A stretch of DNA of 41,348 bases from a virus. Below are positions 1 through 37,348 of this stretch, one piece after another. Under the pieces are notes generated by a model. It did no database searches. It was not told the origin of the DNA and worked only from the letters and a program-made list of their open reading frames with translations. Location: the IMG/VR virus record IMGVR_UViG_3300048609_000070; one strand, written 5' to 3'. A program made the translations under genes and the position numbers. How positions within the stretch are numbered: the stretch's first letter is position 1; each line of letters starts with the position of its first letter.

Positions 1-120
1 GCAACCGCAGTCCTGGATGCTGCTTTAGTAGATAAACAACGGGACGACGAGAGAACTTGGGAAATCGTAAAGGCTGATTTGCAGAAGAACCGAATGTCCT
101 CCCGGAAATTAATAAAATAA
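1..120 (+). CDS. 3' end of an upstream gene (partial, ...SSRKLIK*)
   Basis: Open frame runs from the window edge to TAA at 118-120. Confidence 0.35.
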   Translation, partial: ATAVLDAALVDKQRDDERTWEIVKADLQKNRMSSRKLIK

Positions 121-128
121 GGATCCGA

Positions 129-148
129 CCTGCAGCGGAACCTGCAGG
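129..148 (+). terminator. GC hairpin CCTGCAG-N6-CTGCAGG after the upstream gene, weak T tract
   Basis: 7-bp inverted repeat directly downstream of the stop; followed by a T-rich stretch, not a clean U-run. Confidence 0.25.
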
Positions 149-237
149 ATGTTCTTTGACGCCTTGTGCATACGACTGTGTATTAGGATCGGCCGTGGCC
201 CCGGGTGACGGGGCATTAATAATGGAGAGGATTGATT

Positions 238-2070
238 ATGTATTCGACTGATGATCTCAAAAAAAGAATCAGGGACAGAGAGATTTGTATTGGTATCTTG
301 GGACTAGGATACGTTGGTCTTCCCTTGGCCGGAGCGTTTGCGGAAGCTAACTTCAAAGTCATTGGCTACGATACGGACTCTCACAAGATTGATGCGTTCT
401 TCGGAAAAGAAAATTATTTGACCCATATTGACTTTGAGAAGTTCAGGACTTTTATTGTGGAAAGTAAATTTATTCCGGTCAAGAACCATCAAGGACTGGA
501 GAGCTGTAATGTTTATATTATCTGTGTTCCGACACCTTTGACTGCTGCGCGGGAGCCCGATCTGGTATACGTTATTACATCCTGTAAGGTGATTGGAAAG
601 TACCTGAAGCGGGACGACATCGTGGTGCTGGAGTCTACGACTTACCCAGGGACAACACGGACTCTAGTCAAAGATCTCTTGAATAAACTAAGCGGACTTC
701 ATGCAGGAGTTGACTATGTTTTAGCGTTTTCTCCTGAGAGAGAGGACCCAGGAAATCCAAAATATAATCTAAAGAACACCCCCAAGGTAGTGGGTGGATT
801 GACGCCTGGATGCACGGATGTTGTCTCTTTTCTTTACTCTCATATTTGCACGGATCTGGTAGAAGTGTCTTCTCCGGATACAGCGGAGATTGTCAAGATC
901 TTTGAGAATGTATACCGATCTGTGAACATTGCTTTGGTGAATGAGCTCAAGCTTCTCTGCCACCGGATGGGAATTGATGTCTGGGAAGTCATAAGAGCTG
1001 CAGCGACCAAGCCCTTTGGCTTTCAAAAATTTGAGCCGAGTGCTGGCGTGGGTGGCCATTGCGTTGACGGTCATGAGCTTATTACATTAAAAACGAAAAA
1101 TCATCTGACGATAGATACAATAGAAAATGTTTTTATGATATACGCCAAGAGATTCAAATTTGAGGATGTGATCAACGATGTTGCTGTCATTCAACCCGTG
1201 GATGTAGAAATCCTTTCATTTGATCCTAAAGATAAAGACGTCTGTTGGAGAAAACTGACGCATCTTTTCCGGAGGTCTGGAAGTTTCAATATACTAGAAT
1301 TTGAATTTATGGGTGGAGAGAAATTGTCTGTAACGGATGGACATCCTGTATTTGACATCCAGAAAATGCCTTGGAAGATTATTTTGGCCAGACAGCTTAA
1401 CCGTGATGATCTATTTCCTCAAGTGGATGTGAGTAAGTATCTTCGATCAGACAACTTTGAGGATACAAGCGTTGTCGAATTTACGTGTGCGAGAATCAAA
1501 GACATCCAGAAGAAAGAAACAGAGTTGGTTTATTCCGTTGAAGTGGACGGAACAAAGACGTTTGTAACTTCCCATGGGTTTGTCCTCCACAACTGTATTC
1601 CGCTCGATCCTTTCTACTTGACGTGGAGGGCGAGAGAGTTTGGGATGCAGACCAAGTTTATCGAGCTCTCTGGAGAAATAAATTCAAAGATGCCTGAGTA
1701 TGTGTTTTCTAGGATCCAGTATGCGCTCAACTTGGTCAAGAAGAGTGTCAGTGGATCAGATGTCCTTGTGATGGGTGTTGCTTATAAGAAGAATATTGGA
1801 GATATTCGAGAAAGCCCATCTCTTACTATTCTAGAAATGCTCGTGGAATCTCACGCTAACGTTTTTTGGTGTGACCCTTATGTAGAATCTGTCCCTGTTG
1901 CCGGTGTACAAAAGGTTCCTGATACAACCGATGTTACAATCTTTGACTGTGTGATCATATTGACAGCGCATGATTGCATTGAATACAAAAAGTTTACTAA
2001 AAATAATTGCTTGATTGTAGATACCCGTGGAGTAATTCCAAGAGAGTATCCAAAGTTGGTGCCTGCGTGA
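238..2070 (+). CDS. UDP-glucose/GDP-mannose dehydrogenase-family nucleotide-sugar dehydrogenase carrying an intein
   Basis: N-terminal Rossmann motif GILGLGYVGLPLA. C-terminal UDPG_MGDP_dh_C-like VMGVAYKKNIGDIRESPS. The catalytic GGxC motif is split (GVGGH | intein | CIPLDPFYL). RBS GGAGAGG 7 nt before ATG 238 (the ORF track starts at TTG 232). Confidence 0.85.
   Translation: MYSTDDLKKRIRDREICIGILGLGYVGLPLAGAFAEANFKVIGYDTDSHKIDAFFGKENYLTHIDFEKFRTFIVESKFIPVKNHQGLESCNVYIICVPTPLTAAREPDLVYVITSCKVIGKYLKRDDIVVLESTTYPGTTRTLVKDLLNKLSGLHAGVDYVLAFSPEREDPGNPKYNLKNTPKVVGGLTPGCTDVVSFLYSHICTDLVEVSSPDTAEIVKIFENVYRSVNIALVNELKLLCHRMGIDVWEVIRAAATKPFGFQKFEPSAGVGGHCVDGHELITLKTKNHLTIDTIENVFMIYAKRFKFEDVINDVAVIQPVDVEILSFDPKDKDVCWRKLTHLFRRSGSFNILEFEFMGGEKLSVTDGHPVFDIQKMPWKIILARQLNRDDLFPQVDVSKYLRSDNFEDTSVVEFTCARIKDIQKKETELVYSVEVDGTKTFVTSHGFVLHNCIPLDPFYLTWRAREFGMQTKFIELSGEINSKMPEYVFSRIQYALNLVKKSVSGSDVLVMGVAYKKNIGDIRESPSLTILEMLVESHANVFWCDPYVESVPVAGVQKVPDTTDVTIFDCVIILTAHDCIEYKKFTKNNCLIVDTRGVIPREYPKLVPA
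1060..1593 (+). other. Mini-intein (178 aa, no homing-endonuclease domain) in the dehydrogenase active site
   Basis: Starts with Cys (CVDGHELITL, block A-like). Block B GEKLSVTDGHPVF (TxxH). C-terminal VYSVEVDGTKTFVTSHGFVLHN followed by +1 Cys. Removing it restores GVGGH-CIPLDPFYL, matching the GGSCFPKD catalytic motif of UDP-glucose dehydrogenases. Confidence 0.8.
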
Positions 2071-2508
2071 ATATATTATTTACAGATGAGAGTGCATCCA
2101 GGCATGACTTCTTTTGTTTCAAGCATCATGTGAATTTTCCCTGTACGTGTCGGCATAAAGATTATTGGATTTACCATGCGCTGAATCTTTATCATGCACA
2201 AAGATATCTGGACTATCAGGACTTTGGGTTCGACCTTGTATACTTGGGTATTTCCCGAAAAGGAAATGAGGAGGAGCTTCCTGTCTTTATAAATAAACTT
2301 TCGCAGATAGATAAGATTCCGCTTCGTGTCGTGATCCACACAAATGAGTCCTTTTCCGCAGATTTCTTACGAAATCTCTGCGCGTCTCATTCCTTGGAAG
2401 TTTGTTTTTCGCCTTTTCCTGTAAAATAATGTTTGACAAAAATCTCCTGGATGCTAGAATACTGCTCGGAAAAGTAGCTGCAGGAACGTCTGCAAGATTG
2501 GGCAAAGG

Positions 2509-2964
2509 ATGACTGAACTGGAACCAGAGGCAGAAGCGACGGGAGGGAGTGTAGAAAAATCGGATTATTTGGATGGGACAATCATCGAGATTATCCCGAA
2601 GAGGATCACGAGAGAAGAACTGAAAAATAGGATCGTTGCGATCGTGAGCAGATGGGAAGCTCAGAATCCAAATGCTTGTTTGGGGGATGGAGAACAGATC
2701 CAGTATTACTTATCTCGGAAGGTAGCGAGGCGAACGATCTATGAGCTATTGGTAGAGCTCGGCAAAGAAGAACGACTATTTGTCGAGAAGTACAGCTATC
2801 TACCTCCAGGAAAGAAGAAACTTGCGAAGAATCCCATGAGCTATTTCCTTGTGGGGGCTTCTTTTTGGGGAGAACATGGATATTTTGAGCGCACTGTGCG
2901 CGTGCTTGACGACAATTTCTTCAGAGATTCCAGCGGAAGGCTCCTGAAAATAAGCATTGACTAA
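2509..2964 (+). CDS. hypothetical protein
   Basis: 151-aa ORF with protein-like composition; weak RBS. Confidence 0.45.
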   Translation: MTELEPEAEATGGSVEKSDYLDGTIIEIIPKRITREELKNRIVAIVSRWEAQNPNACLGDGEQIQYYLSRKVARRTIYELLVELGKEERLFVEKYSYLPPGKKKLAKNPMSYFLVGASFWGEHGYFERTVRVLDDNFFRDSSGRLLKISID

Positions 2965-2982
2965 TGTGAATTCACCGCTATA

Positions 2983-3429
2983 ATGCTTTCTGGAAGGAGA
3001 ATTACGGTGTACGGAATAGAAGATCCTACGACCGGAGATTTCGAGGTATTCTTTTTAACTGACGAGAAAACAGGAGCGCGCATTTACGATAGCGTATGCA
3101 AAGTTGCCTGCGGTGCATGCTGTAGGCATTGGACAAAGGTTAGGGAGCTGCAGCACCTTGTTGGAGGGAATCTAACGAAGAAATGTCCAATGCTCCGTGA
3201 GAACGGATGCCGTTTGAAGCGGCAAAAGATGCCTGGTATTTGCAAATCATATTTGTGTGAGCTTGGGATGCTTGTGAAGGTGGGTCTGGCTACATTGGAA
3301 GAAGCAAATAAGTGTGTTGAGCTTGGTATGCAAGATCATGCAGCACGGGAGTTGAGGAAAAAGTTTCCTGTGCAGCGTAGGGAGACGATCGATGCTAAAA
3401 AAATCTTGTCAGATCTTGGGTGGAGCTGA
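2983..3429 (+). CDS. YkgJ/UPF0153-type putative Zn/Fe-chelating Cys-cluster protein
   Basis: CKVACGACC ... CPMLRENGCRLKRQKMPGICKSYLC matches the CxxCGxCC ... CPFL..gC...RP.C pattern of the family. Confidence 0.55.
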   Translation: MLSGRRITVYGIEDPTTGDFEVFFLTDEKTGARIYDSVCKVACGACCRHWTKVRELQHLVGGNLTKKCPMLRENGCRLKRQKMPGICKSYLCELGMLVKVGLATLEEANKCVELGMQDHAARELRKKFPVQRRETIDAKKILSDLGWS

Positions 3430-3430
3430 C

Positions 3431-3682
3431 ATGGACTCTTTTGTAAAATGTGTGATCTGGCCGAAAGAACCCAGAGGTGATGCGAATCGTTACGTTGTGG
3501 TGGGTATGATCGTCACTTCAAAACCTATAGCGCGTTTGGAAAAGAAAAATAAGGAGGGTATTACAGAGTGGATCGGAGAAGGAATTCTGTTGGATAATTT
3601 TCTTGAAACGATTCCTGTTCGTTCGTCAAGGATAAGAACGGGTGATGCGACAGATGTTCTTCTCAGCCTGACCGACCTTTGA
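3431..3682 (+). CDS. hypothetical protein
   Basis: ATG 2 nt after the previous stop, RBS GGTGGAG; ends 6 nt before the tRNA. Confidence 0.45.
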   Translation: MDSFVKCVIWPKEPRGDANRYVVVGMIVTSKPIARLEKKNKEGITEWIGEGILLDNFLETIPVRSSRIRTGDATDVLLSLTDL

Positions 3683-3688
3683 AAATTT

Positions 3689-3760
3689 GCCCTGGTAGCT
3701 CAATGGTAGAGCGGCGGACTGTTAATCCGCGTATAGATGTTCGATCCATCTCCGGGGCGT
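3689..3760 (+). tRNA. tRNA-Asn (anticodon GTT)
   Basis: Cloverleaf read by eye: acceptor GCCCTGG/CCGGGGC (one G-U), D arm TAGCTCAATGGTAGAGC, anticodon stem GCGGA/TCCGC with loop CTGTTAA, T arm AGATG-TTCGATC-CATCT. No encoded CCA. Confidence 0.8.
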
Positions 3761-3783
3761 TGCCTACGTATTAGGGAGGAAAA

Positions 3784-4035
3784 ATGACAAAGGAAAAAAT
3801 GATCACCGAATTTCAGTGCCCTGGGTGTGTAAACGGAATAGAAGTTTCGACGTGTAAAAATTACATGTTTGCGGATTCTCTTGATGGTGCATTTCGATGC
3901 GCAATGCATGTTCCTGGAACAGGTAAGCTTGGTGCTGGTTTATTTTTTCTCGGACTACCAAACGGTTTTAATAAAGTTAGCCACATGGTGCAATCTTTTG
4001 GATGGTCCATTCGACTTTGGAAGTCCCGTGATTGA
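3784..4035 (+). CDS. hypothetical Cys-containing small protein; probably continues in the +1 frame to 4111 (see finding)
   Basis: Strong RBS AGGGAGGAAAAATG. Frame-1 ORF 3784-4035 and frame-2 ORF 3869-4111 overlap; their protein-like parts join at a T4 run near 3996-3999. Confidence 0.45.
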   Translation: MTKEKMITEFQCPGCVNGIEVSTCKNYMFADSLDGAFRCAMHVPGTGKLGAGLFFLGLPNGFNKVSHMVQSFGWSIRLWKSRD

Positions 4036-4112
4036 ATCAGCGAAACTTAGTGATATTCCGGAAATTTTCAAGGTCTTGAACGTTGCAGATTTTATGGATA
4101 AGATCGATTAAA

Positions 4113-4487
4113 ATGTCTGCATTCACGCTCGCAAGCTTTCGTTATCCTCGGTTGTGGGATCGTGTTGTCAACCGCTCTCACCTCATTAATAATCTCTTGA
4201 ATTCTCGTTACGCAGCAATTAGCATTTGCAGCAATGTTTGTTCGAAAAAAGATATTACAGAAGTGCTCATTGCGCTCAGGTCTGCTATCTCTTCTGATTT
4301 TTTTCTTCCGAAGGTTATTCACATCCACGAAACAGACCAAAAAACTCACGATAAAATTGTCCGTGCTGTTGCATTTCTTATCGAGAAGGCAAAGTCCAAA
4401 AATCCTGCGTATGCGAAAAGCGGACCTAATATTATATCGTGGGACACAGTTATTAAAGGGAAATTTTATGCGGTTAATTACTGGTGA
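4113..4487 (+). CDS. hypothetical protein
   Basis: ATG follows the preceding TAA directly (TAAAATG); 125 aa. Confidence 0.45.
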   Translation: MSAFTLASFRYPRLWDRVVNRSHLINNLLNSRYAAISICSNVCSKKDITEVLIALRSAISSDFFLPKVIHIHETDQKTHDKIVRAVAFLIEKAKSKNPAYAKSGPNIISWDTVIKGKFYAVNYW

Positions 4488-5037
4488 TATTTTTGATCCA
4501 AAGACATATCTTTCGAAAATTGGAACGAAGAATTTTGCCATTGCGATCACGACCAATGGCTTTATAAAAAACACGGGTGAGTCCGTAATGGGAAGAGGAG
4601 TTGCTGCACAAGCATGCCGTTTATTTCCGAATCTTCCTGCTTGTGTTGGTCTTGCAACGAGAGAGACAAAGAACCGTCCTGCTTTTTTATTCTACTGGCT
4701 CCGTGAGAATATATCTATTGGAGTTTTTACTTTTCCTGTCAAACCTGACAAGGTAGTCGTTAACAGCAATAATATTGTTAGTTGGAACAGAGACAAGTTT
4801 AGTGAAGGAGATACCGCTCCTGGGTGGGCAGCGAAGGCAGATCTTTCTATTATCGTCCGCTCTTGGAAATGCCTGCAGTACCTGATTGCAGCATGCCCAA
4901 GATTCCGTAAATTTGAAGCAGTGATTATTCCAAAGCCAGGTTGTGGAGCCGGAGAGCTAGAGTGGGAAGAAGTAGAATCTGCACTTGATTCTACGAAGAT
5001 ACTCCACAGAAAATTTTATATTATAGATAGGGAATAA
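4468..5037 (+). CDS. macro-domain-like (ADP-ribose-binding/processing) protein
   Basis: MRLITGDIF...FAIAITTNGFIKNTGESVMGRGVAAQA parallels macro-domain GDIT...AIVNAAN..LLGGGGVDGAI. ATG 4468 with AAAGGG upstream; overlaps the previous gene end. Confidence 0.5.
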   Translation: MRLITGDIFDPKTYLSKIGTKNFAIAITTNGFIKNTGESVMGRGVAAQACRLFPNLPACVGLATRETKNRPAFLFYWLRENISIGVFTFPVKPDKVVVNSNNIVSWNRDKFSEGDTAPGWAAKADLSIIVRSWKCLQYLIAACPRFRKFEAVIIPKPGCGAGELEWEEVESALDSTKILHRKFYIIDRE

Positions 5038-5038
5038 T

Positions 5039-5221
5039 ATGATTGCTATTCTCTGCTTCTTTATGTCGATGCTTCTTTTGATAGCGATACGGGAAAATTT
5101 GGTTGAAAGAGAACTGCCTGGTTGGCAAAGAAAAACCCGTATACGTTATTTTATTGTTGGGATTCTTTTTCTAGCTGCATCTGTTTTATTACTTTTTCAG
5201 CTACTGAAGATTAACTGCTAG
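5039..5221 (+). CDS. small membrane protein (2 predicted TM helices)
   Basis: 60-aa hydrophobic ORF starting 2 nt after the previous stop. Confidence 0.45.
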   Translation: MIAILCFFMSMLLLIAIRENLVERELPGWQRKTRIRYFIVGILFLAASVLLLFQLLKINC

Positions 5222-5265
5222 GTTTGGAAAGAGCTTGGAGTCGTTCGATCACAGATGGCTTTGTC

Positions 5266-5487
5266 CTAATTATCTTTTTCAAAATCTTGATTATTTTTTT
5301 TCGGAACATGGGGCCTCCAAAGCTCTTTGTAGCCCAAGCCACAAAATAGCATGAGCGCAAACATGTGGCTGATTGCATCGATTGGGTTCACGCACTCGTG
5401 CCCCCATGCAGCTACGCCATATTGTATAAGAATGCCTATGGGGAGAAGCACCAGAGTAGCTATCAAAAACGTTTTTCTGAATTTCAT
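5266..5487 (-). CDS. small membrane protein
   Basis: 73 aa with two hydrophobic segments; ends next to the preceding gene's start. Confidence 0.5.
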   Translation of the reverse strand: MKFRKTFLIATLVLLPIGILIQYGVAAWGHECVNPIDAISHMFALMLFCGLGYKELWRPHVPKKNNQDFEKDN

Positions 5488-5491
5488 TAGA

Positions 5492-6355
5492 TTACTCCCT
5501 TCCTGCTGTTATAACACACGTATCGTCTTCCCCGTCTCCGTCTGTGTCCATCCAATAGCTGGATGACTCTGAATCGTGGAAAGGATCGATGGGTCCGACA
5601 GGACCCATTCCTTCGTAAAGTGGAGTACAAGAGTGTCCTGGAGGACAAAAGTGGTGGTCTGCTCCATAAGGACCAGGGGATACCGGCTCTGGTCTATTTT
5701 TCCATTCCTGTTCTCGTCTTTCTTCGATGGCAACTCGTTCGACCCGATCGGACAATCGGATCATGTTTCTTGCAGAGCACGAGATTGTTGCAATCACCGC
5801 TGCGCTGCAGACCCAGCCAGCGCTTAGTCCACATGCGAGGGCTGTTCCAACGAACTCGGCAGTGAGATCTACGCTGATTCCAAATGCTTCTATTCCTAGT
5901 TTTGCTTTTTCATAGGGCAGGCTACGCAAAGAATTGTAATATTGTCGGTATGCATCTAATGATTCTTTGATTTCCTGAAGCGTAGTCTCGAATCCTGGAG
6001 TCATCTTATTTCTAAGAACCAGTCCTTTGTTGATATCGATGACGATGCTGGAGTTTCCTTTGACTCCCATCCATGTTGAGATTGTGAGGATTCCATTCTT
6101 TTCGGAGAACATCCCGAGAAAGAGTTCGTCTGCTTTTTCCATACTGCCATAGACTCCGAGGCTATGTCCGGTAGCTGAGACTGAAGTATAGTCTCCCGGG
6201 ATTGCCTCAGTGGTTGAGAAGACTTTCCATTCAAGGTTCTTGATCCCTGTCCTTGCCTCCAGGGTCTTGGAGACGAAGTGGGCGTCAACAGGGAAAGCTC
6301 TGCTTTCTTCTATGGGGACAACCCCAAGTAGAAGGATGCTGATTGCGGCTATCAT
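5492..6355 (-). CDS. secreted or membrane-anchored protein, unknown function
   Basis: N-terminal signal peptide MIAAISILLLGVVP; RBS AAAGGAG 7 nt upstream; 287 aa with an acidic C-terminus. Confidence 0.6.
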   Translation of the reverse strand: MIAAISILLLGVVPIEESRAFPVDAHFVSKTLEARTGIKNLEWKVFSTTEAIPGDYTSVSATGHSLGVYGSMEKADELFLGMFSEKNGILTISTWMGVKGNSSIVIDINKGLVLRNKMTPGFETTLQEIKESLDAYRQYYNSLRSLPYEKAKLGIEAFGISVDLTAEFVGTALACGLSAGWVCSAAVIATISCSARNMIRLSDRVERVAIEERREQEWKNRPEPVSPGPYGADHHFCPPGHSCTPLYEGMGPVGPIDPFHDSESSSYWMDTDGDGEDDTCVITAGRE

Positions 6356-6461
6356 GCGGTACTCCTTTTAAAGATAAATTAGCTCAACTCCGTATTTAGG
6401 TAACGTTTCCTCCTTTCGTCTTCTGTCATACCAGTTAGATTCTTCTTTTGCAAAAAAATTC

Positions 6462-6490
6462 TTGACAGCTCCTTGCCTTTCTGCTAACCT
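6462..6490 (+). promoter_or_regulatory. sigma70-like promoter TTGACA-17-TAACCT
   Basis: Consensus -35 hexamer at 6462-6467, TAACCT at 6485-6490, upstream of gene 6623-6895. Confidence 0.3.
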
Positions 6491-6537
6491 TCCAGATTGC
6501 GTGGGTTGCTGGCGACGACCCTCCCTCCCTGACAACG

Positions 6538-6570
6538 CCCCCATCGTTCTTGGTGGGGGCACTTTTTTGT
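6538..6570 (+). other. leader hairpin CCCCCA-N10-TGGGGG followed by a T6 run (attenuator/terminator-like)
   Basis: G/C stem with T-run sits between the putative promoter and the RBS of 6623-6895. Confidence 0.3.
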
Positions 6571-6622
6571 CCTTGACTTCTGGTGAAATTTCCTGCAAGA
6601 CTAATGGACAAGGAGGTTCAAG

Positions 6623-6895
6623 ATGGGCGACATTATTTCTATCCCGCAAGACTGCGGGTCTTCCGGTGAAATTGAAGTCAAGGCAGGGCAGATCTGGGAG
6701 AACACAGATCGAAGGTCCAAGTACCCAAAGCTTCAGATCGTAGAAGTGGTCACGGTTGATGGCGTTGGGTATGCAGTCGTGAAATACCTCGACTATCACC
6801 AAATGAAGGTCCGCCTCGACCGATTCAAAAAGAGCAGTCGCGGATACCGGCTTATCCAGGACGCACCAACCAGCACGTCAGCGCAAGCTGTCTAG
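6623..6895 (+). CDS. hypothetical protein
   Basis: Excellent RBS AAGGAGG 6 nt before ATG; 90 aa. Confidence 0.6.
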   Translation: MGDIISIPQDCGSSGEIEVKAGQIWENTDRRSKYPKLQIVEVVTVDGVGYAVVKYLDYHQMKVRLDRFKKSSRGYRLIQDAPTSTSAQAV

Positions 6896-7095
6896 CACGT
6901 ATTTTGTCGGGGGTATCCAAAGATAAGCTCTTCGACTACAATGTTCGCTCTCCATCCGATCGATTCCTTCGATAGCGCCTTTGAGTAAGTCCAGCACGCG
7001 AAATAGGGGTAATACTTCTGGAGTGCCTCCGACATGGCTGTTCGGACATCCTGTTCTAGCATCTCTTTTGGGAAAATGAAGCAGATTGTTTCCAT
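6892..7095 (-). CDS. hypothetical small protein
   Basis: 67-aa ORF convergent with 6623-6895; weak RBS. Its start lies 25 bp from the palindrome at 7121-7140. Confidence 0.35.
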   Translation of the reverse strand: METICFIFPKEMLEQDVRTAMSEALQKYYPYFACWTYSKALSKESIGWRANIVVEELIFGYPRQNTC

Positions 7096-7120
7096 GCTAT
7101 ATTATCGCATCTGACTTTAT

Positions 7121-7140
7121 TTTTGTCCAATTGGACAAAA
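7121..7140. promoter_or_regulatory. perfect 20-bp palindrome TTTTGTCCAATTGGACAAAA (operator-like)
   Basis: Read directly; in the divergent region between 6892-7095(-) and 7206-7562(+), next to a TATAAT at 7181-7186. The half-site TTGTCCAATT recurs at 9052-9061. Confidence 0.5.
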
Positions 7141-7205
7141 CCCCTCCAAGATACGATAACCTAAAGGAAGCGAATCGTGCTATAATGAAAGAAGGAGACG
7201 AAGCC

Positions 7206-7562
7206 ATGCTCCGATTAGTGAAGGAGGTCGATCATGTTCTGGAGACAACGACGGGAGAGATTCCGGATCAAGAGACGGCCTTTTCGACCGGCAAAACTGA
7301 TGCTATCATCCGATTACGACAGTTTATTTCTCAAGCTGTCGGTCAACTTTTTCTGGGTTTTGATGGAAAAACGTGGAGTTTCCGAGGCCCCGGTCTATCT
7401 GGCAAGGCTCGGGCGCTGCTAGAGAGCCAGATGCCATTTTACCTGGAGCATCTCGATCGGCATTTCAATGCGGATCAGATTTTGACCTGCATCTTCCGCT
7501 ACCCGAGAGTCTGGAAAAATTTTTGGGATCACAAGGAAAAACTGCACCTGAAATCATTTTAG
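7206..7562 (+). CDS. hypothetical protein
   Basis: RBS GAAGGAG 8 nt before ATG 7206 (the ORF track begins earlier at 7086); 118 aa. Confidence 0.55.
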   Translation: MLRLVKEVDHVLETTTGEIPDQETAFSTGKTDAIIRLRQFISQAVGQLFLGFDGKTWSFRGPGLSGKARALLESQMPFYLEHLDRHFNADQILTCIFRYPRVWKNFWDHKEKLHLKSF

Positions 7563-8567
7563 ATATACTACACTGGTTCCCCGAACGAGCTTCCTGTTAA
7601 CCGAAGTACTCTGAACGAAAATGTCCCAATTTGCGTGATTTCCTGGCTTGACCTTGACATTCCCAGCCGGAAGGCCCAAGATCTTTCTTGCGTCCTCTCC
7701 TGCGTACACCGCGTCTTTTCCTTTCTCGATCAGAATAATTTGTTTGTAGGATTGCACGGTTTCAGTTTTCATCAGTTGGTAGAAGGCATTCCCTTTCTTG
7801 TAGGTCTGCTTGCTTTTTTCTTCGCAGAAGATCCGGATCTCACATTCACGCGGAACCTGCCAAATGTTTACTTTACTCCGGATGTCTTCCAGCGTTTTTT
7901 GTATGGTCGTTGGAGAGATCTTGCTGAGGTCTGTCACGAAGAAATCTTTGACGGAGCTCTTCCCGGAGGACCGGTGCGTGTAGTAGGAACTGATCCCCGT
8001 CGAGACAGCTTGGGAGGCGTCTTGCAACCCCCTGGCGGTCAATGCCCACTCCTTTACGTTCCCATCCGGGATACTGAATGTGGCGCAGAACCGCTTGGCG
8101 TGCCCTGGAGGCAGAAGAAAAGCGAAGCTCCACCTATCTGTCTTTTGCACTTCATGGATGAGGTTGTTGAGAACCGCTGAATCGTTGAACTCAAACGAAG
8201 CGTTCTCTTCCCCGTCGGTGATGATCACAAGCATGAAGGAAACATTCTTATCTTCGACATCTGGTCTCTGGAGGAGCTTTTTGACAGTCTTGCCCACTGC
8301 ATCAAAGAGTGGCGTTCCTCCGCTTGGTTGATATTCCTGGTAGTCGTAAGTCTTGAGTGTTTTTGCATTTTGGCAAAAGTACTCTTCTTTAATGTCTCCT
8401 CCGAAGGTAACCAATGTGACCGTAGCTTCTTGGTCGCTCTTTTCTGCTCCTTCACGGATTGCCGTTGCGTTCATGTTGAAAGCGTCAACGGCTTGCCGTT
8501 GAATCGGCTGCATCGAACCGCTGCGATCTAGGAAAACCACAAAATGGTTTATGAGCTTTTCAGCCAT
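7554..8567 (-). CDS. von Willebrand factor A (vWA) domain protein with MIDAS motif
   Basis: VVFLDRSGSM (DxSxS) ... GGTPL ... VIITDGEEN. RBS AAGGAG upstream; 337 aa. Confidence 0.8.
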   Translation of the reverse strand: MAEKLINHFVVFLDRSGSMQPIQRQAVDAFNMNATAIREGAEKSDQEATVTLVTFGGDIKEEYFCQNAKTLKTYDYQEYQPSGGTPLFDAVGKTVKKLLQRPDVEDKNVSFMLVIITDGEENASFEFNDSAVLNNLIHEVQKTDRWSFAFLLPPGHAKRFCATFSIPDGNVKEWALTARGLQDASQAVSTGISSYYTHRSSGKSSVKDFFVTDLSKISPTTIQKTLEDIRSKVNIWQVPRECEIRIFCEEKSKQTYKKGNAFYQLMKTETVQSYKQIILIEKGKDAVYAGEDARKILGLPAGNVKVKPGNHANWDIFVQSTSVNRKLVRGTSVVYLK

Positions 8568-8611
8568 CGTATTTCTCCTTGTTTTTTGGAGATTATACGA
8601 TTTAATTGGAT

Positions 8612-8646
8612 TAAATGCAAAAAGAACGGGCCACCTGGCCCGTTCT
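8612..8646 (-). terminator. rho-independent terminator for 8673-8990
   Basis: Perfect 11-bp stem AAGAACGGGCC/GGCCCGTTCTT with loop ACCT. On the minus strand the stem is followed by TTTTTGCATTT. Confidence 0.6.
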
Positions 8647-8672
8647 TCGTAAAAGATGAAATTGAAAATCTG

Positions 8673-8990
8673 CTAGGCGATGGCTTCATAGACCGCTGGG
8701 AGCACTTCCAAGGGGCATTCGATAACGAGCCCTCCCGGTGTGGTGAGCTTGATGACTGTTGCCAAGCTGACCTTCTTTGTCTGCGGTGGGATGACAGCCA
8801 CGGCTGGAGCTTTCTTTGGTGCGTTCGCTTGGGTTTCCCAGGAGTACAAGTTCATGTACGGGATTCCGAGCTCCTCCGCTGCTTTCTTCTTTTTCGTGCC
8901 ACCCTTGATCATCTTGTGCCATTTCTCCAAGAGTTCTTTTCGCTCTTCCGGTGTCCTTAGCGTCTTCTTTGCGTTTGAATAGTTTACCAT
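8673..8990 (-). CDS. HTH DNA-binding protein (IS3-OrfA/transposase-N-like HTH); candidate regulator
   Basis: AAEELGIPYMNLYSWETQ resembles the HTH_Tnp_1 recognition region. RBS GAAGGAGG before ATG 8990. The TTGTCCAATT motif sits about 60 bp upstream. Confidence 0.55.
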   Translation of the reverse strand: MVNYSNAKKTLRTPEERKELLEKWHKMIKGGTKKKKAAEELGIPYMNLYSWETQANAPKKAPAVAVIPPQTKKVSLATVIKLTTPGGLVIECPLEVLPAVYEAIA

Positions 8991-9051
8991 GGTCAGACCT
9001 CCTTCGGTTTTCAAACCCTTCTTCTATAGTTTATCGCATTCGGGAGATTTT

Positions 9052-9061
9052 TTGTCCAATT
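9052..9061. promoter_or_regulatory. second copy of the TTGTCCAATT operator half-site, upstream of the HTH gene
   Basis: Exact 10-mer shared with the palindrome at 7121-7140; followed by GTGTTGACTAAA. Confidence 0.35.
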
Positions 9062-9087
9062 ATTTTTTGTGTTGACTAAACTTAGGA

Positions 9088-9165
9088 TTTTTTTGAAGAA
9101 AAATGCATCCGTGCGAGGGACCCATTGGCGGGGAGGGACCAACCGGGGGAACCGGGCACGGATGC
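9088..9165 (-). terminator. rho-independent terminator for 9165-9653
   Basis: 10-bp stem GCATCCGTGC (9104-9113) / GCACGGATGC (9156-9165) with a GC-rich internal loop. The minus strand then reads TTTTTCTTCAAAAAAA. The stem overlaps the stop codon. Confidence 0.55.
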
Positions 9166-9653
9166 TAATCGGGCGGGAACACCTTCAGGATTTTCCTTGC
9201 GACAGGAATCGTGTGCTCTTTGATCCATTCCCTGAAGCGCTCTTTGATTTTTTCTGCGCTCCCTGGGAACATCTGCTCCACGATCCCTACGAGTCCCATG
9301 GCCTTCTGCTCCCCGTTTGGAGGGACCATTTCTATTCTTTTCTCGACGTAGATCATGATCCCATCCATCTGGAAGAAATCAGGCGCATCTTTCGCAAGGG
9401 TCTCCGCTAAGATACTTGCAATCTCGTGCTGGGCCTTTTTTACCTCCAGAAAGGGGATCAGATGCTCCTGCTTGTACTTGTCGTAGACTTCCTCTTTGAC
9501 CTTCCCGATGGTGCAGAAGTCCAGATGAAGGTCGATGAGCTCCTGAATCGATGTACGGTGCTCCTCAGGGATGTCCTTGACGGTATCCAGATCTGGGATT
9601 GGTTTCGCTAAGTCTGGCTGGCTATCGAGTACTATTTCGTCGTGTTCTTGCAT
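9165..9653 (-). CDS. hypothetical protein
   Basis: RBS AAGGAGG 7 nt before ATG; 162 aa. Confidence 0.65.
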   Translation of the reverse strand: MQEHDEIVLDSQPDLAKPIPDLDTVKDIPEEHRTSIQELIDLHLDFCTIGKVKEEVYDKYKQEHLIPFLEVKKAQHEIASILAETLAKDAPDFFQMDGIMIYVEKRIEMVPPNGEQKAMGLVGIVEQMFPGSAEKIKERFREWIKEHTIPVARKILKVFPPD

Positions 9654-9709
9654 GTAATTTCCTCCTTAATAGATTATCGCATCCGGAGGAAATTTGCACA
9701 AGAGAGGAT

Positions 9710-9901
9710 TCAGAAATCTTCTGACCATGCGGGACTGAAGAGGTCTTTTTCTTTGAGGACGAAGCGATCTCCAGGTTTTGCTTTGGACTTTCCCGGGTCC
9801 ACTACCTGGCATCGGTAGCCTTTTTGTTGACCTTCGTACAGGATGTGTGTAATCTCGACGACTTTTCCAGTGTAGTTGGAACGGTACTTTGTAGCCTGCA
9901 T
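9710..9901 (-). CDS. hypothetical small protein
   Basis: RBS AAAAAGGAGGG before ATG; 63 aa. Confidence 0.55.
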   Translation of the reverse strand: MQATKYRSNYTGKVVEITHILYEGQQKGYRCQVVDPGKSKAKPGDRFVLKEKDLFSPAWSEDF

Positions 9902-9996
9902 CTTTCCCTCCTTTTTTATGAGCCAAGGAAGAATCTTTTTCTGGCATCGGAGAGAATCGGAGTCTCCCCCGGCTCTTTTTCTTTATAGACCGTGCT

Positions 9997-10017
9997 GGGA
10001 AATTGTCAAGAGGAAAT
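9997..10017 (-). promoter_or_regulatory. 21-bp direct repeat copy 1 (TGGGAAATTGTCAAGAGGAAA); minus-strand promoter TTGACA-16-TATAAA
   Basis: The reverse complement holds a perfect -35 TTGACA, and TATAAA lies 16 bp downstream, upstream of the RBS of 9710-9901. Confidence 0.5.
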
Positions 10018-10107
10018 TTCAGATGAGCCAGAGAGGAGGGAGTCCTCGTGGGGGACGCGGTTGGGTATCCTACCTCTCCAGCTCTACGCTTTCCTTGTAG
10101 CCTATTT

Positions 10108-10128
10108 TGGGAAATTGTCAAGAGGAAA
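10108..10128 (-). promoter_or_regulatory. 21-bp direct repeat copy 2, identical; TTGACA overlaps the stop codon of 10118-10618, weaker -10 TACAAG
   Basis: Identical 21-mer 111 bp from copy 1; sequences diverge immediately outside the repeat. Confidence 0.4.
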
Positions 10129-10618
10129 GTTTAGCGAGGATTTTTTCTGCTTCCTCAAAGGTGATGTGGATCGTTGCTGTCTGCTGATCTATCCCGACGA
10201 GCATTCCTAATTTTTCGAGGAAGCCATCCCGGAGACTCTTCGCTTGGGATGCTGTTTTTTCGAGAAGGGCTTTTTCCTTGGCGATTTTTTCTTCGCACTC
10301 GGCTATTTTTTGCTTACGGAGTATGACATATTCTTCCCATGGCATCTGGATATCGCGTATTTTAACAACACTGGGTTCCCATGTATAGTAATCAATTTCT
10401 CCATCTGGCCCGGAGTGATCTTTTCTGCCAGCGATTGCGATGTCTCCTCCTCCATTGGGATCGAAATACGTCTTCGTCTTGTAGGTCTTTGGTTTTGCAA
10501 AGTTCCCGATGTTTATTATTATTGCATGCTGGCAGTTCCAAGAGAATGGACTCCCCCTCTCAGGGAGTTTATCTCCGACAGCAACAGCCATTCCTACAAT
10601 GAGATCAGATCTTTTCAT
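10118..10618 (-). CDS. hypothetical protein
   Basis: RBS AGGAGGAG before the internal ATG at 10618 (the ORF track starts at 10669); translationally coupled to the upstream gene. Confidence 0.55.
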   Translation of the reverse strand: MKRSDLIVGMAVAVGDKLPERGSPFSWNCQHAIIINIGNFAKPKTYKTKTYFDPNGGGDIAIAGRKDHSGPDGEIDYYTWEPSVVKIRDIQMPWEEYVILRKQKIAECEEKIAKEKALLEKTASQAKSLRDGFLEKLGMLVGIDQQTATIHITFEEAEKILAKLSS

Positions 10619-10866
10619 TTCTCTCCTCCTAAGTATTTTATCCTGTCCGTGTTTAGTGGCGCGCAGCATCCTTCGCCGATGTATAGTTGTATCGTGTATG
10701 TTTCTGCCAGTCCACAGTTATATTTTTCTCCATTGAAGGATAGATACGGACATGGAGATCCTGGATCTGCGTTTGGTCCTTCTACCATTTGTGAAAGAAC
10801 ACAACGTGCTTTCTTGCAGCAATATCCACATTGAACGCACGGTCTAGAAAATATCTTAGGACTCAT
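10615..10866 (-). CDS. YkgJ/UPF0153-type Cys-cluster small protein
   Basis: CVQCGYCC ... CPYLSFNGEKYNC; ATGA-type overlap with both neighbouring genes. Confidence 0.5.
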   Translation of the reverse strand: MSPKIFSRPCVQCGYCCKKARCVLSQMVEGPNADPGSPCPYLSFNGEKYNCGLAETYTIQLYIGEGCCAPLNTDRIKYLGGEK

Positions 10867-12113
10867 GGAGGATCCTTCTTTACCTGATAAATTGTTGGAA
10901 TAATCTTGTCTCCTCCTACCAGAAGAGGATGTATCCATTTGAGTACAATAGCCTGCTTCTTTGGATCATCTCTAGGACCTGTCCAATATGAATGCCAATG
11001 CGCCCGTCTTACATGGGGTCTCGGTGACGCATGCGTTCCTTCGCCTCGAATGGACTCTGCCTCTCTGTGGCTCCTTAACACAGCCCCCACCTTATATCCA
11101 ACATCCCATTGAGTTGGATTTGCAGGCGGAAAAAACTTGGGTCCAGTAGCGGTTGATACAGGTGGAGGAGGACCCGGCTTTCTCCTCTTTCCAGCGTGAT
11201 CGATTATGTCAGGCTGTTCCGAGCAGAGGTACAAGAGAATAGAGACAACAGAGCGCAAAGCGTTAACGACGTACCCGCGCGCGCTCTTAACCGCATCAGT
11301 CAATACCCCAAGACCTCGATCCTCTATTTCTCGTTCCGTACCAATGACCATTTCTTCGATTGTTGCTTTAGGGTAAAGATGAGCAACAAGATGCACAGGT
11401 TTACCATTTCCCAATAAAACAACTGCTAACTCTGCATGCTGCTGACCAACATCCCAATCAAGATTTGCAAAAAAAGAAAACTCTTCTCCTAACTCAACGT
11501 ATACGCACCACTCCGGGAGGCGGAAAAGAACTTCAGAGGGAATTGGCCCTGAAATAGGTGCTTCAAGGAGCTCCTCTGCGAGATCAATATCAATACGATA
11601 AATACCCTGTGTTTGCCTCCATGTCGCGACAGCTCCAAGAATTGGAATATCGTCCAGCAATTCATCTGGCACTTTTGAACTTCCGCCAGAAACAATTGCA
11701 TAAGCAGCGTGCAAGGGAACCCAGCACCAAGAAGGCCAATCGTCGAAATCTGGAGAGCCTTTACGCGCCCGAAATTTTGCGTAATCTTGCCATGCATTGG
11801 GATATTTCTCTGACATCACGCGCATCAGATCAACTGGTATCGTGTGCTGCATTTTTTTCAAAATTTGTTTTCCTCTCCTGCAAGGACTATCCGGTTTTCC
11901 TACTTGCGTAAATTCTGCACAGGGTGTTTCTTCGTACCATGTATAGTTGTGTATTGCACAGGAGTACTCTCCTGGAGCTGCCCCAATCAGATGTTTACAT
12001 TTCTCCCCTGAAGTTTTCGGAAGGATATTACCTTCTGAAATTCCAAGTTCTGGGTTGTTGACAATCCCAACAACGTATTCGATGCAACAATATCCACACC
12101 TGAGACAGATCAT
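10863..12113 (-). CDS. large protein with N-terminal YkgJ-type Cys cluster; C-terminal region unknown
   Basis: MICLRCGYCC...CKHL...YSCAIH at the N-terminus; 416 aa. Confidence 0.6.
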   Translation of the reverse strand: MICLRCGYCCIEYVVGIVNNPELGISEGNILPKTSGEKCKHLIGAAPGEYSCAIHNYTWYEETPCAEFTQVGKPDSPCRRGKQILKKMQHTIPVDLMRVMSEKYPNAWQDYAKFRARKGSPDFDDWPSWCWVPLHAAYAIVSGGSSKVPDELLDDIPILGAVATWRQTQGIYRIDIDLAEELLEAPISGPIPSEVLFRLPEWCVYVELGEEFSFFANLDWDVGQQHAELAVVLLGNGKPVHLVAHLYPKATIEEMVIGTEREIEDRGLGVLTDAVKSARGYVVNALRSVVSILLYLCSEQPDIIDHAGKRRKPGPPPPVSTATGPKFFPPANPTQWDVGYKVGAVLRSHREAESIRGEGTHASPRPHVRRAHWHSYWTGPRDDPKKQAIVLKWIHPLLVGGDKIIPTIYQVKKDPP

Positions 12114-29258: not shown

Positions 29259-30464
29259 TTAGTCAAGGATTTTGCATCTTGTCAAGGTTGTCTGCTTGAC
29301 TCCCTGATATTCGTCGTGTTTTTTGACGGTGGCTTTGACCTTATAGGTCCCTCCAATTTCCACCTTTGGATCCTTCGACGAAAACCAGACGGCGCGGTTC
29401 CCTTCTTCCGACAAGAATTTGACGATCCGCGTCACCCCCCACTGATTTTCGGTCTCAAAGATCGTGCTCACAGTCAAGGTGAAAACTTCTCTCTTGCCAA
29501 CTTCCCCGAAGTGATTCGATGTCTCTGCAGCATGCTTTCGTTCTACTTCCTTTCCCACCCATCGGCGGTAGCCAGCCACAGCAGAAGCGGCAATCCCAAA
29601 CAGCCGGTCATTGACTCTTCCGAGTCCTTCAACCGTTTTCAGGTTGTACTCGTAATCCGACACCGCTTTCTCGGTTCCTAAGTTCCGGATCCATTCTCTT
29701 GTCGCAAGTGCCATATCGATGTCTTCCTGCGTGGGCTCTCGTTCTGTGCAGAATTTCCGGATGTCTGGATCCTCCCGTCTGTCGAAGAACATCGTTCCGC
29801 ATATGTTTGCCGTGGACTGCACTCCATGAGTCATTGCTTGCGATTTTGACAGCCAGCCATCGATCCGGATGAGCGCTGCCGTCACTGCAAGGAACTTGTC
29901 AAGATTGATCCAAGCTTCTGTGCGCGGACCACCAGAACGTTCGCTTTCTTCTCTTGCTTCGTCACATAGATCGAGCACCATTTCACAGTAAGCCGCTGCG
30001 CTCTCCGGATCGAATCCGGCACCTGTGAAATCCGACAAGCATGTTGATCCAACGATCTTGTACGTCAAGCTCTCATCCTGCAAGACATAAGTCTTTACTC
30101 TTTTCCGGATTTGATGGCAGTGCTCACAGATCGGCCCGATTGTCCGGAACCGTTCCGGAAGATCCATCCCAGGAACGACACGCAGGATTGTGATCGGCTT
30201 TCCCTCATCATCGACCAAATGATCGAGCGCCGCGACGAAGGCACACCCGGCAATCCTTGGCGTCTCTCCAGAGATCTCCACCTCGATAGCTTTCCACTCA
30301 TGTCTGATCTCCGTGAATGGATCGATCTTGGACTTGAAAACCTCTCGGATCGTGGTCATAGACACCAAAGGGAATCCGAGCTTGACCGCTTTTTTGTTGA
30401 TTTTTTCCAGCTTGATCTCTAGTTTTCCCATGCTCTGCTCTGGGATCGTATAGATCGTTTTCAT
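29259..30464 (-). CDS. hypothetical protein (401 aa)
   Basis: RBS AGGAGGT 6 nt before the internal ATG at 30464; contains CEHCH. Confidence 0.6.
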   Translation of the reverse strand: MKTIYTIPEQSMGKLEIKLEKINKKAVKLGFPLVSMTTIREVFKSKIDPFTEIRHEWKAIEVEISGETPRIAGCAFVAALDHLVDDEGKPITILRVVPGMDLPERFRTIGPICEHCHQIRKRVKTYVLQDESLTYKIVGSTCLSDFTGAGFDPESAAAYCEMVLDLCDEAREESERSGGPRTEAWINLDKFLAVTAALIRIDGWLSKSQAMTHGVQSTANICGTMFFDRREDPDIRKFCTEREPTQEDIDMALATREWIRNLGTEKAVSDYEYNLKTVEGLGRVNDRLFGIAASAVAGYRRWVGKEVERKHAAETSNHFGEVGKREVFTLTVSTIFETENQWGVTRIVKFLSEEGNRAVWFSSKDPKVEIGGTYKVKATVKKHDEYQGVKQTTLTRCKILD

Positions 30465-30706
30465 GGAATACCTCCTGTTTCCCTCGATTGCCTTGTAAGA
30501 AGCAATCCAGGGAAACCCTGGAATCATTCCAGCGCGTTTCCTCAAAAGAAAGAATTTAGTTTTTTGTGTATCAGGGCCAAGTCATGGCACTCTCCATCTG
30601 TTACTGGGTTGATTGAAAAACGGCGGTAGGCAATCGAGGCTTGTTGACTCTACCGATCATTTCAGGCCAGCGTTACTGCCAAACCATGGAATCCTCCTCT
30701 TGAGAT

Positions 30707-33984: not shown

Positions 33985-34599
33985 GTTACCTCCAAGTTTA
34001 GGTCTAAAACTTCCGATCCTGATCTCTAGCATCTCACCACGCCACAGATCAAGATCGGAAAGACACTGGGATTGATTCTGCGAACTCTGAAGTTGTCTAG
34101 ATTGCGCTTGCTTATCCAAGCGGATTGAGTCTTTACACCCCGTAGACCTCGATCTTCCACACTCCGGAAAACGCCTTTCCCTGTGCGCCAGGGTAGCTAT
34201 GTGAGCCGCGTCACTTGAGCACTTCAGATCTCAGTTTGACCAGACTGTCCATTTGGTCCTGACTCCCGGAGTCAGTCTGATCCCGTCAGATGTAAAGCCG
34301 ACCGGTTTTCAAAGAGCAGCTGGAATCCGAAGTTCCAGTTCCGTTGGATCCAGTGACTTAGGATCCTCTGGTTTTTCCCTTTCCTTTCCCCTGCAGACAT
34401 CCAGCTGCAGGTTCTGATGGCCGTGGTCCTCTCGTTTTCTGTGGAGGACCGTTTTCCCAGGTGCCGTACCTACCATCCATTGCACTCCGCGTGCCAAGTT
34501 TAGTCGCCAGGAAAATCAACCCCACATGTTTTTGCGATGCGAACCGTTCTACACTCCTCTCTAGCAAATCCACAACGAAGGATGTGAACTAAACTGCGC

Positions 34600-35100
34600 T
34601 CTCCGTGTAAACTTATGCTCAAAGAGAGAAGGAAAGAACCCTCCGGGTCGATGCCAAAAGCTAAGGAAGGCCCTCCGGGGCCAAAAACTAAAGAGGAGCA
34701 CGCAGGAAGGGGGAAACCTAAAGACGCACCCCCGGAAAGAACCTTGGCAAGCGGGATCTTTAGTCGGAAAGAACATGACCCCCAGCGAAGGAAAGGAACC
34801 TCGCGGAAAAAGAACCGGAGGAATCCTTTGCCGGAGCGCAACAAAAACGAAAGCTGCGAGGAAACCACCCGAGGCAACGAAACCGCTCTGGCCAACATCG
34901 GGGAAAGCTAAACCTGAAGGAAGGAACCCAGGAAGGATGCAAAGGCAAGACGCGCAATCTAGCCTCGGAGGAAACGAAAGGACGCTCCCATGGAAAGAAG
35001 GGAAACCGAAAAAGCTACCAGGGGAATCTAAACTGGGAAGGAACCTGCCAAAAGACTTCCATGAGACTAACCTTAGAACGAGGATCCATCGGAAGGAACG
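34600..35100 (+). repeat. purine-rich degenerate tandem array of GGAAAGGAACC-like units (about 15 copies, spacing about 20-35 bp)
   Basis: By eye: ggaaagaacc, ggaaaggaacc, ggaaggaacc, gaaaccacc, ggaaacgaaagg and similar recur; plus strand about 75% purine. Only low-complexity K/E/R/P-rich ORFs cross it. Confidence 0.5.
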
Positions 35101-35679
35101 AGAGTAGGCTTACAGCGTTTAGTCACAGAAGGAATGAAAGGATCCTATGGAGCTTCCCCTGTACGAACCTAAGCGAGAGCCTACTCTAGCCTGTGGAACT
35201 AACCTGTGCTAACCTTGTATGCCTTGCCTGCTACCCTACCGATGGCCGTAACTAACCTTCAACATCATCTTGCTACGGGCTTTCCATACGAGGGTGCACT
35301 TTCCATGAGACTAAACTTTAGCACTAACCTGTTAGCGTGAGACGGGTGCGTGCTACTCCGCGGAGCGGGTTGACCCTCCGGGCATGTCTATGGGGATCCC
35401 TCACACATGCTGTCCGCTGGCTGTACAGGCTATCTTGTTACATTCTGTGCGAGTAACCGCGCGTGGGGGGTCAGTTGCAGATAAACTTTAGAGTCATCCA
35501 TAGTTGTATTTTACAACTAAACTTCGATTAACGAGCCTATGTGCGCCCTTTGAAGCCCCCTCTCCCGAAAAATGTAGGCCATTTCCTGACGTTTGGTTTA
35601 GCTCAAACCGCGTATTGTTTAGTCTTTTGATTAGTTTTATCGGAACTAAACTAAAGTGTGTATCCCGCTGCACGGAGGT

Positions 35680-37240: not shown

Positions 37241-37348
37241 ATATAGTTTTTTTCAGAATCTGAGGGAAAAATTTGGGAGGCTGGTAGTGGGTGGGGCCGA
37301 GTTCCCGTAGGAGCTCGACTGCAGCCTGTCGAAGAGTCTTCGACGTGT

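Follow-up and report, generated by a model that had tools for sequence, protein, structure and literature searches.

A probable mini-intein directly before the catalytic cysteine of a nucleotide-sugar dehydrogenase encoded on an IMG/VR contig

Mini-intein within a dehydrogenase gene

The IMG/VR virus record IMGVR_UViG_3300048609_000070 is represented here by a stretch of 41,348 nucleotides, referred to in full as the window. The gene at positions 238 to 2070 (plus strand) very likely encodes a nucleotide-sugar 6-dehydrogenase of the UDP-N-acetylhexosamine (UDP-HexNAc; WecC/WbpA/TviB-like) branch that is interrupted by a class-1 mini-intein between His274 and the catalytic Cys. The insert (positions 1060 to 1593, plus strand) lies at exactly the coordinates at which the original prediction, made from the bare sequence, had placed a mini-intein, and consists of 534 nt (178 aa; 20.7 kDa) in frame with no stop codon. 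Sequence profiles, an AlphaFold2 model, Foldseek comparisons, and alleles inserted at the same site all point to a HINT fold lacking a homing-endonuclease domain. Judging from its sequence, the insert is a new, divergent, endonuclease-less, and probably splicing-competent member of an intein allele that is already known and widespread.

The splicing residues were assigned by aligning the window insert with 25 homologous proteins that are interrupted at the same position (26 alleles in all). The Cys1 codon (TGC, 1060 to 1062, plus strand) provides the block A nucleophile of the N-S acyl shift, and its column is invariant. Block B follows at 1333 to 1347 (plus strand) as T92-D-G-H95-P96, a TxxH motif with invariant H95 and P96 and with at least 90% conservation of T92 and D93. 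Blocks F and G (VYSVEVDGTKTFVTSHGFVLHN; 1528 to 1593, plus strand) contain further invariant residues and close with the penultimate His177 and terminal Asn178, read directly from the codons CAC AAC (1588 to 1593, plus strand). The next codon, TGT (1594 to 1596, plus strand), specifies Cys+1, the first C-extein residue and splicing nucleophile, which is invariant in both of our alignments. Across the 26 alleles, the invariant positions are C1, E6, H95, P96, V157, S159, E161, G173, H177, N178, and the following Cys. By its residues, this set is that of a canonical class-1 intein: Cys1, a block B TxxH, blocks F/G, a terminal HN, and Cys+1. All peptides quoted in the original prediction (GVGGH/CVDGHELITL..., TDGHPVF, and ...SHGFVLHN/CIPLDPFYL) are present as described.

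Profile searches recover the insert as an intein from both ends. TIGR01445 (intein_Nterm) matches with 30.2 bits against a cutoff of 24.5 (E = 6.7e-7), and TIGR01443 (intein_Cterm) matches blocks F and G with 24.0 bits against a cutoff of 15.6. A sequence profile of the allelic family matches PI-PkoII at 1e-31 and the TFIIB intein at 1e-16, and the match of the insert to inteins is far beyond chance. A single-sequence search of the PDB with the intein gave weak matches only (E values of 0.006 to 0.1), topped by designed TIM barrels that represent a spurious repeat match; the family profile and the fold search were used instead. As anticipated, no endonuclease domain could be detected, with no match to PF14528, LAGLIDADG, or HNH families in Pfam and NCBIfam scans. 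Because of this and its length of only 178 aa, the insert is a mini-intein and not a homing intein. An intron-type RNA element was ruled out as the cause of the interruption, as the only Rfam matches are to tRNA.

The AlphaFold2 model, built on the allele alignment, is all-beta with a mean predicted local distance difference test (pLDDT) score of 91.9 and a predicted template modeling score of 0.86. Its weakest segment is residues ~121 to 140 (pLDDT of 83 for 121 to 130 and 65 for 131 to 140), which the alignment identifies as a short linker (positions 1420 to 1479, plus strand) at the place of the endonuclease in full-length alleles. The top 50 Foldseek matches in the PDB are all HINT domains (inteins, Hedgehog, and BIL), so that the Hint-type domain first proposed from motifs is recovered by model as well as by profile. 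The best match is the Pyrococcus horikoshii RadA mini-intein (2lqm/4e2t; template modeling [TM] score of 0.86 to 0.87, root mean square deviation [rmsd] of 1.9 to 2.3 Å, E = 1.8e-13), followed by TFIIB, PolII, CDC21, and VMA inteins. The solved archaeal mini-inteins of P. horikoshii RadA, TFIIB (5o9i/5o9j), PolII (2lcj and 7oec), and CDC21 (6rpp) share the predicted fold of the window intein (TM score of 0.77 to 0.87, rmsd of ~2 to 4 Å) and its size (168 to 185 aa), but they are only 16 to 24% identical to it and reside in different host proteins.

Because the HINT fold is shared by BIL and Hedgehog domains, which appear lower in the fold-search list, the insert could be imagined as a non-splicing HINT/BIL-type or unrelated domain that functions inside the mature enzyme. 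Such a domain would sit in the middle of the active-site loop, at a point where inteinless homologs are contiguous. The full intein signature (Cys1, TxxH, HN, and Cys+1) is present, and relatives at the same site carry LAGLIDADG homing endonucleases, a hallmark of true inteins. This alternative is already largely refuted, and we regard it as scarcely credible.

Conceptual removal of the insert rebuilds an ordinary dehydrogenase, as the original prediction had proposed. The N-extein (238 to 1059, plus strand; 274 aa from the ATG) extends through the Rossmann NAD-binding domain (GILGLGYVGLP) into the central domain as far as ...GVGGH, and the C-extein (1594 to 2070, plus strand; 158 aa and the stop codon) contributes the remainder of the central domain together with the UDP-binding domain. 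All three domains match above cutoff at residues 20 to 196 (PF03721), 217 to 300 (PF00984), and 512 to 602 (PF03720) of the dehydrogenase open reading frame (ORF), and the GLGYVG of the Rossmann GxGxxG motif is invariant. The extein-only protein (432 aa) aligns end to end with the structure of the P. horikoshii UDP-ManNAcA dehydrogenase (4r16; E = 1e-63), where "gvgghcipldpfyl" pairs with "gvgghclpkdpyll" at the junction. With the insert in place, TIGR03026 matches in two stretches totaling 381 bits; its removal merges them into a single stretch of 396.7 bits (cutoff of 189.8) that spans model positions 3 to 412 of 413. The GGxC(L/I/F)PxD motif appears only after conceptual splicing (GVGGH-CIPLDP), and the predicted peptide across the spliced junction is GVGGH-CIPLDPFYLTWR. 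Inteinless homologs read GGH-CIP without a gap, with GGH and Cys invariant in the alignment. The Cys of GGHC(I/L)PxDP is the catalytic thiol nucleophile in UDP-glucose, GDP-mannose, and UDP-ManNAc dehydrogenases. The intein therefore lies directly N-terminal to the catalytic Cys, with that same Cys predicted to serve as the +1 nucleophile. Of the two outcomes named in advance as refuting the original prediction, a failure of the insert in Hint-domain profile searches and an extein junction that does not reconstruct the active-site motif, neither occurred.

As for the substrate, we compared the spliced protein with equivalog models for UDP-ManNAc dehydrogenase (WecC), UDP-GlcNAc 6-dehydrogenase (TviB/WbpA), and UDP-glucose 6-dehydrogenase. 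The UDP-glucose dehydrogenase models score 130 against cutoffs of 670 to 700, and the UDP-ManNAc/UDP-GlcNAc models score about twice as high. The nearest inteinless homologs, at ~50% identity, are labeled UDP-N-acetyl-D-glucosamine dehydrogenase by the Joint Genome Institute (JGI). These comparisons suggest that the enzyme is nearer to the UDP-GlcNAc/UDP-ManNAc (HexNAc) branch than to UDP-glucose dehydrogenase.

Splicing route, selection, and points against activity

We infer the course of splicing from the standard class-1 pathway. The precursor (computed mass of 68.9 kDa) would fold its HINT domain, upon which Cys1 would attack the His-Cys1 peptide bond in an N-S acyl shift and trans-thioesterification would move the N-extein onto Cys+1. 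Cyclization of Asn178, helped by His177, would then free the 20.7-kDa intein, and an S-N shift would restore a normal peptide bond (...GVGGH-CIPLDP...). The product would be an enzyme of 48.3 kDa whose active-site thiol is the former splicing nucleophile; the original estimates of ~48 kDa for the spliced product and ~20 kDa for the intein were close to these computed masses. The unspliced precursor could not be active because 178 residues stand between the catalytic Cys and the half of the active-site loop that comes before it. The window intein has lost the LAGLIDADG homing endonuclease that its full-length alleles have kept and is therefore no longer self-mobile. It would persist only because precise splicing keeps the host gene working.

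The only close relative of the gene, on another assembly (L028), is 91% identical at the nucleotide level over 2.6 kb. Between the two inteins there are 30 synonymous and 19 nonsynonymous differences (dN/dS of 0.14), compared to a dN/dS of 0.06 for the exteins, and none of the 14 resulting amino acid changes in the intein falls at a catalytic residue. This pattern is suggestive, though not conclusive, of an intein under purifying selection that is still active rather than a relic.

Several observations weigh against an active intein in a HexNAc-branch enzyme. The estimate of selection rests on one sequence pair. PF14890 (Intein_splicing) scores the insert at 31.3 bits, below its gathering score of 35.8, and many inteins carry Asp in block F where the window intein has Ser159, a residue that is invariant within the same-site family of 26 alleles. 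On the enzyme side, the spliced protein stays below the cutoffs of the NCBIfam equivalogs NF040825 (260/750), NF008286 (250/459), and NF011729 (222/592), and no partner glycan-pathway genes are visible in the 41-kb window. The low PF14890 score and the lack of glycan-pathway partners nearby would also fit a decayed, splicing-dead intein relic in a dehydrogenase that is a nonfunctional passenger gene, as would the long branch of the intein and the loss of its endonuclease, a late stage of the intein life cycle. Against this stand the intact catalytic positions of the intein, a 1,833-nt frame that is open in two genomes differing by 9% at the nucleotide level, the low dN/dS of both intein and exteins, and a predicted HINT fold that is confident and compact. 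We therefore consider a relic improbable and favor a splicing-competent intein.

Distribution of same-site inteins

The intein allele termed "udp" has been described from UDP-glucose 6-dehydrogenases of Halobacteria, other Euryarchaeota (Methanocaldococcus jannaschii and relatives), and two bacteria (Dictyoglomus and Fervidibacteria) (Soucy et al. 2014, PMC4071816), and UDP-glucose dehydrogenase is listed among intein hosts in reviews (PMC2874743). The window copy resembles this allele (UDP-GD in InBase, from M. jannaschii) in that the intein likewise resides in a UDP-sugar dehydrogenase, and differs from its members as a 178-aa mini-intein whose identity to other alleles, apart from those of its own cluster, does not exceed 38%. 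A search for literature on MJ1054 and its intein, and for phage-intein surveys naming this enzyme, returned nothing usable. The original prediction held that inteins at this exact site were known from a few archaeal enzymes, which understates their range, as they occur in 32 of the 120 best database homologs of the window protein and in 37 GTDB species that are nearly all bacterial, in addition to the bacterial carriers already published (PMC4071816).

The GTDB survey used a degenerate DNA pattern for the junction H-N-C-I-P-x-D-P-F-Y and identified 37 species-level genomes, all with true junctions at the exact GGH/C site of the window and with VYSxEV...HN/C blocks. Carriers belong to Planctomycetia, Acidobacteriota, Eisenbacteria, Saccharibacteria, Elusimicrobia/Endomicrobia, Armatimonadota, Abditibacteriales, Bipolaricaulota, Fraserbacteria, Thermotoga, and Limnocylindria, together with two Woesearchaeota. 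Judging from the copies in archaeal metagenome-assembled genomes (MAGs), this position is probably the site of the published "udp" allele. On that footing, the bacterial range of the "udp" allele is far broader than published lists indicate, extending to Planctomycetota, Acidobacteriota, Eisenbacteria, Elusimicrobia, Armatimonadota, Bipolaricaulota, Thermotogota, and the Candidate Phyla Radiation. Since the site is widely occupied in bacteria, rarity is not a reason for interest in the window copy. Inteins at the catalytic nucleophiles of conserved enzymes are the rule, and a further copy at a site already known has little consequence for intein biology as such.

Both mini- and full-length forms occur at the site. 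The inteins in the 32 database homologs are either 178 to 292 aa long or 472 to 481 aa long with a LAGLIDADG domain. The GTDB survey yielded mini-inteins of 167, 175, 182, 187, 196, 201, and 237 aa, and a HMMER scan of 1.84 billion representative proteins added 12 further same-site members, including mini-inteins of 159, 169, 183, and 210 aa. For example, mini-inteins are present in Singulisphaera sp. Ch08 (196 aa), an Acidobacteriota MAG (167 aa), Abditibacteriales (175 aa), Thermotoga (201 aa), and Gemmataceae (P0008; 252 aa). They share the host family, site, catalytic residues, and endonuclease loss with the window intein. The setting of the window copy is phage-like and rich in ORFans, not that of a recognizable cellular genome. 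Full-length LAGLIDADG inteins (P0002, P0006, P0017, and the IMG/VR contig L002) have the same site and splicing blocks and likely represent the ancestral state. They measure 463 to 504 aa, with PF14528 (an endonuclease of ~300 aa) where the window copy keeps a linker of ~20 residues. In a quick neighbor-joining tree of the splicing domains, built without support values, the mini-inteins are scattered among full-length clades, which suggests that the endonuclease was lost repeatedly and independently to leave mini-inteins of 159 to 292 aa.

The window intein itself is divergent. Its close relatives are confined to its own cluster (P0001/P0125); beyond these, the best members among the 1.84 billion representatives are 34 to 38% identical. 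Extein identity fails to separate intein-bearing from inteinless homologs (means of 47.7% and 50.3%, respectively) and so gives no indication of the lineage that donated the intein. Metagenome contigs searched with the spliced protein gave nothing above 50% identity and no inteinless close allele that would represent an empty homing site. An intein-only search of a 5.8-billion-protein index returned no match and missed even a 95% relative, reflecting a limitation of the word index rather than absence; local phmmer and the full HMMER scan recovered the alleles that the index had missed. An exact 40-mer of the intein has no match in IMG/VR, and one taken at the beginning of the window has none in the metagenome contigs.

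Among the carriers, Singulisphaera sp. Ch08 is a cultured planctomycete with a complete chromosome (NZ_CP155447.1), and its 196-aa mini-intein would make it a ready experimental system for this intein allele. The window copy, a compact natural 178-aa mini-intein with Cys at both positions 1 and +1 and a catalytic thiol as the +1 residue, would be a convenient model for splicing-dependent enzyme activation.

Gene boundaries and genomic context

The dehydrogenase ORF (232 to 2070, plus strand) encodes 610 aa from the ATG at 238 or 612 aa if the TTG at 232 is used. A Shine-Dalgarno-like GGAGAGG, read directly at 224 to 230 (plus strand), lies 7 nt before the ATG and 1 nt before the TTG, and gene calls on two other assemblies (L027 and L028) begin at the ATG. 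Because of this spacing and the independent gene calls, translation probably starts at ATG 238, which shifts the extein and intein residue numbers of the original prediction by 2. The resulting product is identical to the L027 gene call and to the database protein P0125. Upstream, a partial ORF (stop codon at 118 to 120) is followed by a terminator-like hairpin (129 to 148, plus strand), a pattern match from a consensus scan, which suggests that the dehydrogenase may begin its own transcription unit. Downstream, the GTG start of a 120-aa ORF (2067 to 2429, plus strand) overlaps the dehydrogenase stop codon (GTGA). This ORF is called in both L027 and L028 (L028 positions 2559 to 2921), is thus conserved in the 91%-identical relative, and has no Pfam or other family match. 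It is probably cotranslated with the dehydrogenase and may be a functional partner of it.

The original prediction also described the gene as encoded on a mobile element, a plausible claim: phage-type replication and recombination genes and many ORFans are present in the window, but a scan of ~45 ORFs revealed no gene for a capsid, portal, terminase, tail, integrase, or relaxase. One feature that points to a phage is a RecT-like annealing protein (29259 to 30545, minus strand; 427 aa; PHROG 2319) with 36% identity to the "RecT-like ssDNA annealing protein" of the Tunturiibacter jumbo phage Tunturi_5 and homology to hypothetical proteins of many other jumbo phages. Further PHROG matches are to an SNF2 helicase (phrog_62), a VWA protein, and a DUF2786/DUF7168 protein. 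The window also encodes a sigma-70-like factor, dozens of short same-strand ORFs without a family match, and a lone tRNA-Asn (GTT; 3688 to 3760, plus strand) that lies among ORFans downstream of the dehydrogenase. At 37.5 kb, the GC content jumps from 43 to 52% to 59 to 65% across an HsdR gene (type I restriction R subunit, 1,017 aa) and a translationally overlapping gene with an Abi_C domain (37525 to 41183, minus strand). This block looks like a defense module of different origin or flanking host DNA. Megablast searches of window positions 1 to 12000 against phages and 5000 to 29000 against plasmids gave no match, and no record of the HsdR or SNF2 protein turned up in exact look-ups. Elsewhere, P0125 is recorded on a 136,545-bp JGI contig, and a Logan contig is identical to window positions 1 to 7370. 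The region is phage-like, and a mobile-element context is plausible but unproven.

Known phages encode homologs of the enzyme, including Aphanizomenon and Planktothrix phages, Bacillus phage SP-15, and Maribacter phages, among others. The sequence at the catalytic Cys is free of insertions in all 30 INPHARED phage records with a homologous dehydrogenase, all 942 plasmid records with a homolog leave the intein of an intein-containing query uncovered, and an intein-only search of the phage and plasmid collections gave no match. Similarly, 25 of the 26 IMG/VR contigs with the enzyme are inteinless. The sole exception, L002 (IMGVR_UViG_3300037424_002587), encodes a 920-aa dehydrogenase (5953 to 8715) with a full-length LAGLIDADG intein at the same GGH/C site. 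IMG/VR classes this contig as viral, but the label is doubtful and we did not find it convincing as a viral precedent, as the neighbors of the gene (ClpX, DnaX, and an IS605 OrfB/TnpB) look cellular.

These surveys bear on whether the dehydrogenase gene might instead lie on a bacterial chromosomal island or a large plasmid that is neither a phage nor self-mobile, with the intein being another cellular copy. This is a serious contender, to which we give somewhat less than even odds. It would account for the missing phage and plasmid hallmark genes, a source contig of 136.5 kb, the high-GC HsdR and Abi_C genes adjoining a region of lower GC content, the occurrence of all 37 GTDB copies in cellular MAGs or genomes, and the cellular neighborhood of the IMG/VR copy L002. 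The RecT-like protein with its best matches in jumbo phages, the PHROG families, the sigma-70-like factor and lone tRNA-Asn, the long runs of short same-strand ORFans, and a composition unlike that of the flanking high-GC block argue for a phage-like element.

If the element is a phage, the window intein would be the only copy of the allele in the phage and plasmid collections searched, residing in a sugar-metabolism gene as opposed to the replication and packaging genes that usually host phage inteins. A more far-reaching proposal is that the window derives from a large phage (at least 136 kb) whose intein acts as a posttranslational gate on the dehydrogenase. Cys1 and the catalytic Cys+1 lie on either side of the splice junction. 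Such pairs are reported to form disulfide redox traps in other inteins, and a Cys1-Cys+1 disulfide, temperature, or a substrate cue might keep the enzyme inactive until conditions in the infected cell permit splicing. We hold this to be a long shot. If true, an auxiliary metabolic enzyme gated by an intein would be documented for the first time in a phage, as would a phage-borne "udp" allele; the possible phage context and the idea that splicing gates the enzyme are what remain of interest in the window copy.

Other features of the window were noted in passing. The stretch from 34560 to 35530 is purine-rich and apparently noncoding, with an AT skew of +0.47 at 34500 to 34999. The motif RCTAAMCYT occurs 13 times in the window compared to 1.5 expected copies, a count reached in none of 100 shuffles. 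Six of the 13 copies are on the plus strand within 34560 to 35530, and several other copies are on the minus strand, 10 to 20 nt upstream of minus-strand ORF starts (10127, 22205, and 33714); the motif may serve the element as a promoter or leader signal. The noncoding spacer from 36000 to 37500 (43% GC) lies exactly at the composition jump and contains three copies of a ~66-nt repeat (36652, 36981, and 37138) as well as short TGTTTA and TCCTTTTTTGGATCTT arrays. This spacer might represent an origin, an iteron region, or the boundary of an element. Finally, an ORF shortly downstream of the dehydrogenase (2983 to 3429, plus strand) encodes a Cys-rich protein of 148 aa (CKVACGACCRHW ... CPMLRENGC ... 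CKSYLC) that has no Pfam or PHROG match and is suggestive of a metal- or Fe-S-binding protein.

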